Shown: in pieces, positions 1,960 through 34,900 of the stretch
How positions within the stretch are numbered: the first letter of the stretch is position 1
Layout of the letters: each line of letters starts with the position of its first letter
DNA from: Octopus sinensis
Lineage: Eukaryota
Assembly: GCF_006345805.1 (NCBI RefSeq)
Contig: NC_042997.1
Span: 97,216,001-97,280,000 of the forward strand
Length of the DNA stretch: 64,000 nucleotides
Reading direction: 5' to 3'
The notes under the pieces: generated by a model
What the model was told of the DNA's origin: nothing
Databases searched by the model: none
The model's input: only the letters and a program-made list of their open reading frames with translations
Translations under genes and position numbers: made by a program

Positions 1960-3724
1960 GCGATGAGTAAATTGTCGCCATGATTTTGTCAACTACACAG
2001 TATAGTGGGGTCAGTTGGGCACCATCTGTGAGAAAAACACCATCATTACACAAGTCACTCAGCCAGAAATTTGGAAACAACATGCTGTACTGCTTAGCAT
2101 TCACACCAGAAGCTCCAATACAAACATTTCAGAGTGTCTGGGTGTCAATCTGAGGACAGTGCAGAGGATTTGGAAAGAGTTGGATGAGTCTAATGGTGAT
2201 TACAAAGGTACAGCAGCTCAGAAAATTCACTCTGGTCATTCTGATAAGAGAAGAACTACTGAATTTGTTTGTAAGATCCAGGCCATGATTGACAACAATC
2301 CCTCCAAGTCAATCAGGTCCATCGCCAGGGACATGGGAGTGTCTGAGTTTCTTATCAGGCAGGTAGTGCATGAAGACATTTGGTATTCCTCATACAAGAT
2401 GAGAAAGGGCCATCAAGGACAAGAGGAAAGACCATGTTATTCCAAGCCATCAAGGACAAGAGGACAGACCATGTTACAAAGCTTTTGAACAAACTCAAGC
2501 ATCACCTCCAATTGAACATGCTTTGGTTTTTCTCAGAAAAGAAAAATTTCTGCCAGGATCAGATGGTAAACACATAGAACACCTGTTGACTTGCCAAGTC
2601 CCAAAAACATGTACCAAGAGTAATACAATTCTATATTTAAGAGATGAGGAATTATGTACATTATTTACATTTGACGTATATTTGTCTTGATCTTGCTTGT
2701 TAACACGTTTCGGCTGATATACCCTCCAGCCTTCATTAGGTGTCTTGGGGAAATTTCAAACCTGGGTTCTCATTCCTAAGGTATTTTTCAACGTTATTAT
2801 TATCATTATTATTATTGTTGTTGTTGTTGTTGTTCAGGTCACTGCTTGGAATCGAACTCAGAATCTTGGGGTTAAGAGCACAGGCTACTAACCCCAAGAT
2901 TCCGAGTTCGATTCCAAGCAGTAACTTGAATAATAATTATAATAATAATAACAACATTGAAAAATACCTTAGGAATGAGAACCCAGGTTCGAAATTTCAC
3001 CAAGACACCTGATGAAGGCTGGAGGGTATATCAGCCAAAACATGTTAACAACAAACAAGATGAGGACAAATATCCGTCAAAGGTAAATAATGTAAATAAT
3101 GTACATGTACCAAGAGTGATAAAAACCAAACATCCAGTCAACATCATGTTTGAAGGGATCACTAGTGATGGCAACATTATGCCACCATTTATCTTCCCAC
3201 TCAGACTCAGCATGGAGGTCTACATCAAGTGCCTTGAGGAGGTAGTACTGCCCTGAATCAAGACAGTGGCTGCTGGGAGACCCTATGTCTGACAACAGGA
3301 CTCTGCACCATGCCACACAAGTAAGAGAACCCAGTCATGTCTGTCAGGCAATTTCTAAAACCACATCATCCCTAAAATCTGGCCACCTAACTCTCCAGAC
3401 TGCAACCCCCTTGATTATTTTGTGTGGAGCACAGTTGAGCAAGAGACCAACAAAACTCCTTGTAACACCAAAGATGAACTGAAGGCAAGTATTATGGCAG
3501 CATTCACCAACTTAAACAAGGAGACTGTCCAGTAAAGTTGCATCAGATTCCGAAGTCGTCTGGAGATCAAGGTTGAAGCCAATGACAATTTTATTGAATA
3601 AATTTACTCTTTAGTGTTTCAAGATATTTTTATGTAATTTTGGTAAATATATCTGTTAAAATGAGATGACAGTGTTATTTTCATTTTCGTGTAATTTAGA
3701 CAACAATTTATTCACTGCACCTTG
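1954..3724 (+). mobile_element. Decayed Tc1/mariner-superfamily transposon, DD37D (maT) family
   Basis: Imperfect TIRs (tagggtgcgatgagtaaattgtc / acaatttattcactgcaccttg) in TA context. Transposase pieces: KSIRSIARDMGVSEFLIRQVVHEDI and QQDSAPCH...WPPNSPDCNPLD, with 37 residues between the last two catalytic D. Several stops; interrupted at 2622-3102. Confidence 0.9.
2622..3102. mobile_element. Head-to-head inverted dimer of a tRNA-headed element with a hammerhead-like, Penelope-type tail
   Basis: The left part (to about 2873) is the reverse complement of about 2889-3100. 15-bp direct repeat acatgtaccaagagt at 2607-2621 and 3103-3117. B-box gagttcgattcc. CTGATGA-A-GGCTG..CAGCC-(G/A)AAA core in each arm. 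Confidence 0.8.
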
Positions 3725-16990: not shown

Positions 16991-17344
16991 ACTTGTGTTT
17001 ATGTGAATGTATAATTGGGGGTGGGGCTATAGATAAACTTAAGCTAGATATATATATTTGTGTTTATATTGTAAGTTACAAACAAAATTAGCACATAGGT
17101 ATTTTCAAGAAGGGCTATATAGAAATTCAAATTAACTAAAAAAGTTATGTGGTGGAGGGAGAAAGAGAGAGTGTAGGTATGCATGTATTTTCAAGAATGT
17201 ATGTGTGTGTGTCTGTCTGTGCAAGACAATGTGTACAAATATGTATGCATAAGTGTGTGTCAGTGAATGAGCACATATTCTCCCTCACAAGTGCTCAATC
17301 ACTCAAGCGCTTACCCAATCACACATGCAGGTGAGGATAATGAG

Positions 17345-19284
17345 TGAGTGACTACATGAATAAGAGGGGGCTGAGGACTGAACCTTGGTGGACCCCTACC
17401 TCTACCCGGAATTCTTCACTGTACTCGTTGCCAATCCTCACCATACTGATGGTGTTTCTGTACATGGCTCGCACAGCTCTCACTAACCATTCATCTATCC
17501 CTAGTTTCCTCATTGACCACCAGATAAGGGATCGGGAGACCCTGTCAAAGGCTTTCTCCATGTCAACGAAAGCCAGGTACAGAGGTTTATCTTTGGTTAG
17601 GTATTTCTCCTGCAGCTGTCTTATCAGAAATATGGCATCAGTAGTGCTTTTCCTTGGCACGAACCAAAACTGCATCTCATCTAAACTGACTTTCTCACTA
17701 ATTAGTTGGGCTATGACCCTCTCCGTGACCTTCATTACCTGATCCAATAACTTGATACCTCTGTAATTATTTGTATCTAAAGCATCACCTTTACCTTTGT
17801 AGCAGTTGACTATGGTGCTGCTACACCAGTCATTGGGTATGACTCTTTCATGTGACTAGGCTATAGCCGACACTGCCAGATATTTTGAGCATCTCTGCAT
17901 TGATTCTTGATGGGCCGGGGGCTTTCGCTGTCTTCATACTCTTGATTACTTTATCTAACAAGGTACTGTCAATTCAGATAGCTGGTCCCTCTGTTGGGTC
18001 GACATTCAGCAGACTCTCTTTCTTCCATTCATTCTCTTTATTGAGCAACCTTTCATAGTGGCGTCTCCAAACCTCTCTCTTTGCAACCTCGTTTAGTGCA
18101 AGTGAACCATCATCCATGTAGACACATTTCTCTCCTACGGCATCATGATTCTCTCTCACACACTGTCTTGCAACACGAATACTTCAAGTCCTTGGTCCTC
18201 ACGGCACAGAACATTGGCAAATTTTTTCTTATCTGCTTCCCCTCTGGCTAAATAAATCTGTCTCCTAGCTTCCCTTGTGGCAGCCTGATACAATTCCCTG
18301 CTACCTCCGTTCTTCCAGTCCTTCCAAGCCTGTTTCTTTTCCTGTCAACCACATTGTTCCACCACCACGTTACCTTGGGTCGAGAGGGGACTTTGCACCA
18401 TCCACAGATCTGGTCAGTGGCTCTCAGCAAGTTGTCCCGTAGAAACCTCCAGTTGTCTTCCACATTATGTGATGCTATATCCCCTTCTGTTTTGTCGAAG
18501 GCTTTGAGTAATATGTCTCTGTCCATTTGAAAGATCTTTAAGCTTCCAGACCCTTCTCCTCCAAGCTGGTCTTCTTCTGGGCATCCATTTAGCCCTGATC
18601 CCAAAGTCACTAACTACTAATCTATGTTGAAGGGTACATTCTTCGCCTGGGAAGGTTTGGGCATTTATAAGCAGCCCTATATCCCTTTTTCTGGTGAGGA
18701 TGTAGTCAATTTGGCTAGTGTATCTGCCAGAACAGTAAGTGACTAGGTGACAGGCGGGTTTCCTGAAGTTGGTATTGCAAACCATAAGATCATTTGCATC
18801 GCAGAACTCCAGCAGTCTGGTTCCCTCCTCATTGCGGGAACCAAAACCACGGCCTCCATGTACGTCATGGAAGCCCCCTGCATGTTGTCCAACATGTCCA
18901 TTGAAATCACCAGCTACAAAGAGAAGGTCCCTGTCATTCATCAACAAGGTAGTCTGCAATAGGGTGTCATAAAATCTTTCTTTCTGCCCATCCGGTAGCC
19001 CCGGTCGAGGGGCATAGGCTGAGATAATGGTAGCTAACCTATGGTGAAGCACTAATCTAATCTTAAGTATTCTATCACATACTCTGACTACCTCGATTAC
19101 CTTATCAACCCATTTCTCCACAAGAAGTATACCCACGCCCCTGACCTCATCAGTGTTCCCTGGCTAGAAAATCATGTACCTAAGTTCTTTACCTGTGAGG
19201 AGCCTAGCGGAACTTCCTCTCCACCTTACTTCTTGGATGCAGCACAAATCTACATGTCTCCGTTCAAGCATCTCAACAATCTCA
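17345..19284 (-). mobile_element. RTE-clade LINE fragment: APE endonuclease plus N-terminal RT, frameshifted
   Basis: GDFNGH and TSQIDYIL (APE); FVDMEKAFD and GVHQGSVLSPLLF (RT). Confidence 0.95.
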
Positions 19285-30311: not shown

Positions 30312-31963
30312 GGAGAGGAAAGGTCCTGAGAGAAGGGAAAAAGTCCAAGAAAAGTACATGTGGTTACATGGCCGAAGTGACCAGAACTGAAAACATGTGT
30401 CAGATCATGGAGAAATGGATGGGGGTTGGCAAAGGAAGGGTGTATGACTAGAGAAAAACTCAATAAATTTTGTTCAACCCATGTGAGCATGGAAAAGTGG
30501 ACATTAAAACAAGGATGGTTTCTCCAAGCTTGAGATATTACATATGTAAAAGTATGTGGTTTAATGGTTAAGGTGTTTAGCTTATGATCATAAGGTTGAA
30601 GGTTCAATTCCTGGACCAAGTACCATGTTATGTTCATTTCATGTTGTTCCAGTTTTTTAAACTGTTACCTTTTATCTTTTACTTGTTTTAATCATTTCCA
30701 CTGTGACCATACTGGGGCACCATCTTGAAGGGTTTATTCAGATGAATCAACCCCAACCCAGTATTTATTCTCTTTTGATGAACTGCTATGTTACAGGAAT
30801 GTAAACAAACCAATACTAGTTGTCAAGCAGTGGTAGGAGACAAGCACAACATACCAAACACACACAAATGCACACAAAACTGGCTTCTTTCAGTTTCCAT
30901 ACCAATTCCACTCACAAGGTTTTGGTTAGCCCATGGCAGTAGTAAAAGACAGATTCCAAAGGTGCCACACAGTGGAACTGAACACAAGATCATCTGGTGC
31001 AGAAGCAATCTTCTTAACCATACAGCCATGCTGCAGGTGCTGATGCAATCCTCTTCCTCCCTCTGTCACATCCTGGATGTTCTGCCGGATCAAGATTTCA
31101 GGAGCCAAGAAGAATGTCTGTCTGCTCACATCTATATAGAAGGCACCTAAACAATTAGTAAAACATATGGTACATGGAACCCTGTCAAACTTTCTCTTGA
31201 CTGATAGGTGGATACACAGTAATAACATCCTGAACACATGTATATGGTGCATTAATACTGAACCAACTTCATGGTTTGAGCTGAATTATTAAGCACTCAT
31301 TCATATCCTCATAATCATCAGTACGGAAGGATATGTAACCGAAATAGAATGGAAGTTATTGACTTGCAAACTAATGCATTGGAATATTAATAAATATTTG
31401 TTCTGTAAGCTATTTCTAAGACTGATACATTTGCCTGGAAAAGCATTCATTCTTATTGATGCATATGCATGCACACATACACACACGTGCATGCATACCT
31501 AAATAGAAACATACATGTACATACGCAGATACATAGGTAAACACATACATTCTCACACACACACACACAGTGAAACAAATACATACTAGCATACATACAT
31601 AACAAGAACATAAATAAATCATTTAAACTGCAATGAAATGTAATTTATATATATATATATAGATAGATACACACACACACACATATATATGCAAGCGTAC
31701 ATACATACACACATATATATGCATGCATACATACACACACACACACATATATATATGCATGCATACATACACACACACACACACATATGCATGCATACAT
31801 ACACACACACACACATACACGCATACATACACACACACATATATATGCATGCATACATACACACACACACACATACATGCATACATACACACACACATAT
31901 ATATGCATGCATACATACACACACACACACACACATACATACACACACACATATATATGCATG

Positions 31964-32033
<70 letters not shown>

Positions 32034-32039
32034 CACATA

Positions 32040-32675
32040 TTCAAAGAGAGTTAGAGGTTGTGAATCCAACCCACTAAGGGATAATATCTGTTCAATATAC
32101 TGCTGGTAGAATAGCCAATTAATACACAAGTGTTGGTTATTGCATCGCAATTACACTACTGAGTATAACAATTGGGCGAGGGTAATAAGTGGTTTTACCC
32201 TTAATTTATATAGCAAGAAGAAAATGGAGGGAATCCAGAGGTAAAATTCACCAGCTGTTAGACATTGTATTATGTCTATTTATTTAAAACAGTTCTGATT
32301 ATATACATGTGTAAAGTATTAGTAATTTCTAGAATAGAGAAAGAAGAGCAGTTTCTTACAGCTGTTTCTGCCAAGAGGTCACAGTACTTCACGTTATTTC
32401 TATCTTTTCAGTGTACAGTAGTGATCTGTAGATAAAATTAGGCTTCTTGGGCGTGCCTCTAGGCTTCATCAGAGAGTTTTATAAGACAGTCTAAGAAGTT
32501 CAGAGGGCTAACTTATGTATGTAAGAAACTGCTCTTCTTTCTCTATTCTAGAAATTACTAATACTTTACACATGTATATAATCAGAACTGTTTTAAATAA
32601 ATAGACATAATACAATGTCTAACAGCTGGTGAATTTTACCTCTGGATTCCCTCCATTTTCTTCTTGCCATATATA
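32040..32675. mobile_element. Penelope-type mini-element (minus, about 32523-32040) plus inverted partial copy (32520-32675)
   Basis: Arms of about 150 bp (32207-32360 and 32520-32675), near identical; TA tracts on both sides; hammerhead in the loop. Confidence 0.8.
32354..32475 (-). ncRNA. Type I hammerhead ribozyme with extended stem II
   Basis: TCT-CTGATGA-A-GCCTAGAGGCAC...GTGACCTCTTGGC-A-GAAA-CAGCTG-TA-AGA; palindromic stem III and GUA site; A.A mismatch at the base of stem II. Confidence 0.75.
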
Positions 32676-32722
32676 TATGCATATGTATTTATACTTCAAA
32701 TATATGTATGTATGTATGTATA

Positions 32723-32804
<82 letters not shown>

Positions 32805-32808
32805 GTGG

Positions 32809-32841
<33 letters not shown>

Positions 32842-32870
32842 ATGTATATATATATATATATAATATGTGG

Positions 32871-32912
<42 letters not shown>

Positions 32913-32924
32913 GTATATATATAT

Positions 32925-33570
32925 ACAGTTCAATCCATTATCCAAAAGCTTGACGATACCTCTTCAGAGAGGAGTGTGTGAGTTGCTCACAAGTGTACGA
33001 GTGGTTCAGACATTTCCAAGATGGCCGGAAAAATGTTGATAGTGGAGAGCATCCTGGGAGACTTGCAACCAGAAGAACTGAGAAAAACATCACAGATGTG
33101 CATGCAGCTGTGAGGGGAGATTTTTGAATCACCATCCGTGAGTTATCAAAGGATGTGCAGGTTAGTTATAGTTCAGTTCAGGTCATTATCACTGAAGATT
33201 CGGGTATGAGACATGTGTCTGCCAAGTTCATGCCAAAAATGCTTTGAGATGACCAAAAGAGCACTCAAGTTTCAGTTGCACAAAATTTCTTTGTGTCAAG
33301 ATGAAAACTTTCGGAAAACTTTGCATACACCTCTGAGCAAGCATTGCCAAGCTTTTGGCAAAATTTGATGCAGATTCTCAGCTCAACTTTGTCATGGTCA
33401 ATGCAATGAACACATGGTACTTCCAAGTACTGATGTAAACAACAAACATGAGTTAGAATGTTAAAACTTAGTGCACATGCACAGCAGAGTTCAAGGTCAA
33501 TCTGTACTGCGTGCATTAGCTTTGTTACTATGGCAACAGTCTGCATACTTATTGATCAGTCCATGTATAT
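32925..33570. mobile_element. Rearranged mariner relic
   Basis: Plus-strand [20 protein letters not shown] and GMRHVSAKFMPK; minus-strand N-terminus ELRICIKFCQKLG. Confidence 0.75.
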
Positions 33571-33584
33571 ATATATATATATAT

Positions 33585-34900
33585 ATATCATCATCGTTTA
33601 ATGTCCGTTTTCCATGCTAGCATGGGTTGGACGATTTGACTGAGGACTGGCAGACCAGATGGCTGCACCAGGCTCCAATCTAATCTGGCAGTCTTTCTAC
33701 AGCTGGATGCCCTTCCTAACACCAACCACTCCGAGAGTGTAGTGGGTTGTTTTATGTGCCACTGGCACAAGGGGTAGTCAGGTCGTACTGGCAACGGCCA
33801 TGCTGAGATGGTGTTTTTTACATGCCATCTGCACAGGAGCTAGTCCAGCAACACTAACAATGACCTCGCTCGAATATTTTTTTTCACGTGCCAGTAAGGC
33901 GACGCTAGTAATGATCACGCTCGAATGGTGCTTTTTACATGCCACCAGCACGGAAGCCAACTGGCTTCCGTGCTGGTTCTGGCAAGGGTCATGCTCGGAT
34001 GGTGCTCTTAGTGCTCTACTAGCATGGATGCCAGACATTAAATTTGATTTTGATTTCACTTGCCTCAATAGGTCTTCGCAAGCAGAGTTTAGTGTCCAAT
34101 GAAGGAAAGGTACACATAAGTAGGCTGGTTACACCCCTGACATAGGCCACACGGTTATGGTCTCACTTGGCTTGCCGGGTCTTCTCTACTTCATCCAAGG
34201 TCTTCCTGGGTCTACCTCTTCCACAGGTTCCCTCAACTGCTAGGGTGTGGCACTTTTTCATACAGCTATCCTCATCTATTCTCGCCACAAGACCATCCCA
34301 GCACAGTCATCTCTCTTGCACACCATATCTGATGCTTCTTAGGTCCAACTCTCAAGGTACTTACACTCTGTTGAGTATGCTCACTGATATTACACATCCA
34401 TCGGAGCATTCTGGCTTCATTCCTGGCGAGCTTATGCATGTCCTCAGCAGTGAAACATGCATGCCCATGTTTCACTGCTATATAGCATGGTTGTTCGTAC
34501 ACATGTGCCAAACAGTCTACCTTTTACTCTGAGCAAGAGGCCCTTTGTCATCGGCAGAGGTAAGAGCTCTCTGAACTTTGCCCAGGCTATTCTTATTTTC
34601 GTAGCTACACTTTCAGCGCAGCCTCCCCCACTACTGATTTGGTCACCTAGGTAACGGAAACTATTAACTACTTCCTTTTATATTGCTGCACCTCTCATGT
34701 GTCCATAGCTTACACTGGGTACATCTCATAGAGTTTCTACCTACGCCTTTTCTACAGATCGAACAGGGCCATCTACCTGAAGGGATTTGTGGTTTGCCAG
34801 CCTTCCTACTTATTAGGACTTTGGTTTTAGCTAGGTTGACTCTAAGGCCCTTCGATTCTAATCCTTGTTTCCACACCTGAAACTTCACCTCTAGTTTGTG
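33585..34900 (-). mobile_element. RTE-clade LINE 3' fragment with internal deletions and 3' UTR
   Basis: KGLRVNLAKTK..WPCSICRKGVG..CTQCKLWTHERC; GRGRPRKT; (CAT)n tail at about 33590. Confidence 0.9.

Follow-up and report, generated by a model that had tools for sequence, protein, structure and literature searches.

Why does one arm of an inverted repeat begin within a few bases of the bond at which the other arm's ribozyme is predicted to cut? This question is raised by a locus of Octopus sinensis (contig NC_042997.1), which we analyzed in a window of 64,000 nt (contig positions 97,216,001 to 97,280,000; all positions below are those of the window). The initial annotation had read the inverted arm as the cDNA of a self-cleaved RNA, copied to its 5′ end, and the locus as a genomic footprint of hammerhead activity.

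Arms, predicted hammerhead and junction

The long arm (32040..32520, minus strand) is the 481-nt 3′ end of the element. It runs from the farther of two fixed 3′ ends back through the predicted hammerhead, and many genomic copies share its exact end base, followed by TA repeats. The last 164 nt (32040..32203, minus strand), called the tail here, separate the two fixed 3′ ends, which are the putative start sites of reverse transcription. Positions 32204-32360 and 32520-32676 are inverted arms of 157 nt each with 2 mismatches. The left flank (31640..32039) is a TA/CA microsatellite, a target-type sequence in which no target site duplication could be read; the right flank (32677..32925) is a TA/TG microsatellite. 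Decayed transposon fragments lie near the locus at 32960-33440 (plus strand), 17344-19163 and 34146-34900 (both minus strand). From the text of their open reading frames, we take them to be fragments of a mariner-like transposase and an RTE-like LINE.

The predicted hammerhead (32354..32475, minus strand) has a type I layout, with CUGANGA, GAAA and NUH around three stems. Read along the minus strand from 32475 to 32354, it consists of UCU, the CUGAUGA core (32472-32466), a 97-nt region with a long stem II, GAAA (32368-32365), CAGCUG and UA|AGA(AAC). Stem I has 3 bp (UCU/AGA), and the 2-bp stem III is closed by the palindromic AGCU. The hammerhead consensus places the scissile bond after the GUA triplet. 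The predicted cut thus lies between 32357 and 32356 on the minus strand (32356..32357), and we number 32356, the first base past it, as +1.

The hammerhead-shaped motif is conserved. In 40 copies selected because their core was intact, the hammerhead's named pairs were 88% paired, compared with 35-46% after sliding. Covariation was thin, with two-sided changes at 3 pairs, and 315 of 500 shuffles reached as many. The window copy folded no better than its shuffles (z -1.25). RNAalifold recovered only 6 pairs from a ragged alignment. Rfam returned no hammerhead match at the locus and none among the 150 of 163 matches listed. Five copies (L030, L308, L336, L382 and L540) carry internal deletions that take part or all of the hammerhead, with short homologies at some of the deletion ends.

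The short inverted arm (32520..32676, plus strand) extends from -4 to the nearer of the two fixed 3′ ends. It opens at 32520 with TGTA|AGAAAC and thus begins 4 nt upstream of where the cut is predicted; the sequence across the junction is ...CTTATGTATGTAAG. The earlier statement that homology begins within 4 nt of the GUA site is therefore correct. Four bases had also been described as repeated at the junction, as the mark of a microhomology template switch. A tandem TGTA does lie there (TGTATGTA, 32516..32523, plus strand), but nothing was duplicated. On its left, four bases belong to the long arm; on its right, four correspond to arm positions -4 to -1, with one mismatch to the usual parent sequence. 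Reverse-complemented, the left TGTA (32516-32519) is element sequence, and ATACATAA is also present in L006, L059 and L120. Since the left TGTA belongs to the element, the tandem is not a scar, and we rejected both a duplication made at the junction and a microhomology origin. Among 106 other truncated 3′-anchored arms, 7 also start within 4 nt of the cut, so that closeness in the window copy is weak evidence by itself.

A contig from run X2, which carries another organism label and comes from another study, spans 32491-32611. It reaches 29 letters left of the junction, just short of our bridging rule of 31 letters, and its differences from the window arm amount to 1 letter plus 6 gap letters. 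On the strength of this contig, the junction is probably real and common to the source of run X2. The window arms are only 1.3% apart, although each is 4.5% from the family reference; this is the second lowest divergence of 79 pairs, whose median is 8.8%. Positions 32204-32360 and 32520-32676 also have private substitutions and deletions in common against the family, and the run X2 arm is less similar. The arms may have been homogenized later; gene conversion between the inverted arms or polishing during assembly is possible. The low divergence would also suit a short arm that arose by a later duplication at the DNA level, or as an assembly artefact, with no relation to reverse transcription. 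We find this barely credible, because the near fixed 3′ end of the family is also where the short arm terminates and the run X2 contig covers the junction region. With the differences of that contig from the window arm, later homogenization of an old two-armed insertion fits better than a new copy.

Identity of the element

The long arm has 2628 candidate relatives in the genome, of which 40 were scored. They have two fixed 3′ ends in common, 164 nt apart, and variable 5′ ends, which identifies the minus strand as the sense strand. Judged from its sequence, the element fits the 3′ end of an endonuclease-bearing (EN+) Penelope-like retrotransposon. A sister subfamily, B, keeps the hammerhead and diverges in sequence after +3 from the window's subfamily, A. 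B is the larger one, with 460 and 678 exact anchor matches.

Walking upstream in B, we found no open reading frame within the first 2.2 kb. Farther on, a fragment in L472 matched GIY-YIG in Pfam (E 1.9e-4), at 22.1 bits just below the cut-off of 22.6; it was the only one of five fragments to match. On the sense strand of one genomic copy of B, the end of a homologous fragment lies 2683 nt upstream of the cut, and GIY-YIG is tied to subfamily A solely through the common terminal repeat. In one genomic copy (L313 and L467), about 2.7 kb of non-coding, microsatellite-rich sequence extends from the endonuclease stop to the hammerhead. No homologues of the endonuclease fragment were found among longer proteins at E 0.001. 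A CDC...C...C cysteine motif lies ahead of GIY-YIG in L470, and a variant of it in L473. The Neptune clade, which we compared by description, has a Zn-finger-like linker before its endonuclease in the accessible part of PMC8557442.

An asparagine-rich stretch also precedes the GIY-YIG fragment in subfamily B. Long stretches of this kind run from the RT-thumb-like region to the endonuclease (L473:231-641, L495, L477 and L037:2270-3017). They resemble the N-rich inserts of Adineta Penelope elements, as far as these are described in the accessible part of PMC3846280. In subfamily A, L037 carries a decayed 151-aa RT-thumb-like piece, which stands head-to-head with the repeat as its inverted partner. 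In Atlas, the top match of this piece was HTH_animal (50% of members) at 0.96, and one cluster had RVT_1 at 17%; in Pfam it had no match. A full RT was not seen in the copies examined.

An inverted partner adjoins 89 of 165 truncated arms, and in 70 of the 85 head-to-head loci one long 3′ end is paired with one short one.

Distribution of 5′ ends around the predicted cut

Arms were gathered by exact anchors 3′ of the cut, which makes their selection independent of where they start. The three sets of subfamily A were near-complete (69 of 70, 66 of 67 and 62 of 63 arms kept). The two sets of B (94 of 97 arms kept, and 79) were samples, consisting of the first 100 of 460 matches and of 79 arms out of the 678 matches, drawn from contigs C1 and C2 to 159 Mb. 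Matches with less than 600 nt upstream, duplicates and 15 arms of the B +38 set that were called beyond +24 were dropped. The final set held 260 distinct arms, with the window's plus arm left out.

Moving upstream, the number of 5′ ends per 100 nt at risk was 0.33, 0.29 and 0.34 from +175 to +41. It then rose to 0.75 (+26 to +40), 1.04 (+13 to +25) and 1.80 (+1 to +12). Past the cut it fell to 0.59 (-12 to -1), and then to 0.33, 0.29 and 0.34 farther upstream. The zone from +1 to +25 held 59 events against 43 from -100 to -1, a rate ratio of 4.0 (p 6e-12; 2.9 in A and 5.9 in B). In 3′-anchored arms this zone also exceeded +41 to +120 (ratio 3.8, p 6e-6). The best change point was -2, with a 95% set of -3 to -1. 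The initial annotation had proposed plotting breakpoints against the GUA position. The ends are indeed far from uniform and step at the cut, but they form a ramp over the 25-40 nt downstream and no peak at the cut itself. We looked for a spike at the cut or +1 and found 5 ends at -1 to +2 (1.13 per 100 nt), compared with 1.42 per 100 nt at +3 to +25. The density step agrees with a footprint of hammerhead activity at the level of the family, although the window copy proved atypical, as described below.

The step was stable to several changes of the data. The ratio was 3.84 without 8 doubtful calls and had a median of 4.0 with one arm per locus. When 1500 uniform truncations were simulated, no pile-up appeared, +1 to +12 was slightly under-called and the median error was 0; the pile-up is thus not made by the pipeline. 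Of 97 arms that reach +40, 34 end within +1 to +40, against 12 expected, and 63 read past the cut. The excess over background corresponds to roughly a fifth to a quarter of the arms reaching +40. At the 85 head-to-head loci, the farther arm ends at +1 to +13 in 20 cases and at -13 to -1 in 5. The partner also stays 3′ of the cut for 34 of 37 arms that start at +1 to +25. The same was true for 28 of 31 arms starting at +26 to +125, so this behavior of the partner is not specific to the pile-up.

Local sequence could produce frequent ends just 3′ of the motif through a pyrimidine tract, palindromes or microhomology hot spots. Junctions do recur at +10 and +27 in A and at +19 in B, with fold-backs at palindromes, and the rate correlates with the pyrimidine share in B (rho 0.51-0.57). 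Counting one event per position lowered the ratio to 2.4. However, this ratio was still significant (p 4e-4), and plain ends carry the excess as well as inverted ones. Neither AT content nor RNA:DNA hybrid strength tracked the peak. Rates are mostly low in the bins from +37 to +108, which are more AT-rich and form weaker hybrids, and likewise in other pyrimidine-rich bins. We therefore regard an origin from local sequence as very improbable.

Another reading is that the RT was blocked on uncut RNA by the folded hammerhead, by its dimer or by protein of the element bound at this place. Intact copies have a long, stable stem II (of four folded, two gave z -2.7 and -3.2), and the stem III palindrome could, by model, form an 8-bp intermolecular helix at -9 to -2, whose edge is near the change point. 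Protein assistance is reported for the Anolis hammerhead in the accessible part of PMC11167929. A second hammerhead family of the same genome also suits a block. It was recognized through the decayed end of another abundant hammerhead-bearing repeat at 2950-3090 of the window (plus strand), in which GAAA is broken; the intact-core pattern has 1878 exact matches in the genome. This comparison family is unrelated, with a GUU triplet, a 5-bp stem II and 3′ ends only about 50-85 nt beyond the cut. In a small sample read by eye, 1 of 29 ends fell at +1 to +18, where about 6-7 were expected. A step is thus not universal among hammerhead families, which counts against a cut as its cause, and the family with the short stem II has no pile-up. 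On the other side, placing the stop at stem II's base (-12/-13) fitted 3.7-5.1 log units worse than -2/-1 (a change point at +4 was 6.2 worse), and stem I has merely 3 bp. A block without a cut seems unlikely to us, although a block by a dimer helix or a protein is indistinguishable from a cut in genome data.

The ramp could also arise if transcription started inside the terminal repeat at about +1 to +25, so that the RT ran off a capped 5′ end and the hammerhead was a bystander. According to a review (PMC6765202), the upstream partner's pLTR is where Penelope transcripts begin, and dispersed starts would give a ramp with no spike, as observed. But in both subfamilies, which differ after +3, the upstream edge is no more than 3 nt away from the scissile bond. 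In addition, the accessible part of PMC11167929 places the cut of the Anolis element 26 nt downstream of the start codon, which means that transcription there starts upstream of the hammerhead. For these reasons, we consider a transcription start distinctly doubtful as the source of the ramp.

Proposed template cutting, the window copy and known systems

We think it rather probable that copies stop preferentially 1-25 nt past the predicted cut because part of the template RNA had cleaved itself and the RT ran off the cut end. Under template cutting, the element's protein would nick both strands of a TA repeat, by analogy with PAc in vitro, and each target strand would prime a single cDNA, beginning at one or the other of the two fixed sites. 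The hammerhead would cut the RNA, probably as a dimer held by the predicted 8-bp helix of the palindrome. On a cut template the RT would run off, and the cDNA would end at +1. Two cDNA ends, or one cDNA end and the target, would then be trimmed to a microhomology, in line with what has been proposed for R2 junctions, and this would spread the ends over +1 to +25 and let them fade by +40.

The window copy does not follow this course in full. One template at least must have been uncut, because its long arm continues across the ribozyme. A read-through partner is present for only 3 of the 37 arms starting at +1 to +25, which makes the window copy atypical. The family's step at the predicted cut agrees with the proposal that such an arm is cDNA copied to the 5′ end of a self-cleaved RNA, but the window's plus arm includes G-U-A, bases that have no place in the cleaved RNA. 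The opposite arm could have supplied the right TGTA only if the parent had TAC at this place, which is the reading in 2 of 24 relatives. Post hoc, we compared 31 other arms whose partner reads through; three of them (L017, L109 and L010) had junction microhomologies that fit a start at exactly +1, as the model of the initial annotation would have it, against 0.4 expected. The far partner of L215 was a microsatellite match, and L215 was dropped from this subgroup. Because of these +1-compatible rates and the 2/24 figure, we give roughly equal weight to two origins of the short arm: another RNA, which had been cut, with the partner providing TGTA, and an uncut RNA on which copying stopped at -4/-3 by chance.

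The type of element and its layout of inverted arms, tails and microhomology junctions are already known for Penelope-like elements, as the accessible parts of PMC8557442 and PMC3846280 make clear. The EN+ Neptune-type elements described there share with ours the head-to-head 5′-truncated arm, the tail on one arm, the TA-microsatellite targets, the C-terminal GIY-YIG after a cysteine motif, the terminal-repeat hammerhead and the N-rich stretch between RT and EN. Our element differs in a tail of 164 nt (30-40 in theirs), in the roughly 2.7 kb between EN and hammerhead, and in a stem II region of about 95 nt. The same parts of these papers contain no link of 5′ ends to the cut, and PMC8557442, in its accessible text, calls the role of the hammerhead in endonuclease-bearing Penelope elements unclear.

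PAc, a Poseidon element of Anolis studied in vitro (PMC11167929, accessible part), is also similar: priming occurs on both target strands, the tail is set by two internal RT start sites, and a dimer is predicted. In that system, however, insertion in vitro could do without cleavage, and the cut was not the end of any RNA-seq read, whereas the genomic ends of our family show a step at the predicted site. Metazoan Penelope hammerheads cleave poorly in vitro (PMC4209133), which, like the results for PAc, speaks against template cutting. R2, with its HDV-like ribozyme, gives a precedent for reading a ribozyme site in 5′ junctions; as far as the accessible part of PMC3774820 goes, the site sets the cDNA end there and the junctions are variable and microhomology-primed. 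The R2 ribozyme lies at that element's 5′ end and gives rise to full-length copies, whereas a hammerhead near the 3′ end would give short non-coding arms, with trimming within element sequence. Metazoan non-LTR retrozymes, in the accessible parts of PMC7229834 and bioRxiv 10.64898/2026.07.22.740005, have a type I hammerhead with a palindromic stem III and are kin to Penelope terminal repeats. We rejected this identity for our element, which has one hammerhead at the locus, an inverted layout, no tandem unit bounded by two hammerheads and a family that extends upstream into a coding element.

A family-level step of 5′ ends at a hammerhead cut was not found in the literature searched, which lay outside subscription papers and supplements; Fig. 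S2 of PMC11167929 may bear on it. As a genomic read-out such a step is inexpensive, and it can be applied to any Penelope-like family. If it reflects cleavage, the ribozyme acts on germ-line transposition templates and limits what is copied. Tentatively, we suggest that self-cutting of germ-line templates by Penelope hammerheads might serve as a brake. Cut RNA would give short non-coding arms only, two-armed insertions would record RNPs with cut, uncut or mixed RNA pairs, and the window locus would stem from a mixed pair whose junction lies exactly at the cut.

Some head-to-head pairs (L103, L240, L100, L049 and L245) have no overlap between their arms, one of the arms being confined to the tail. 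Such pairs would be expected from twin priming on a single RNA; overlapping pairs would need two RNAs or displacement. Beside several copies in TA-rich places (L310, L366, L199 and L285) stands an abutting repeat that ends in CTAG, which is presumably Helitron-like.
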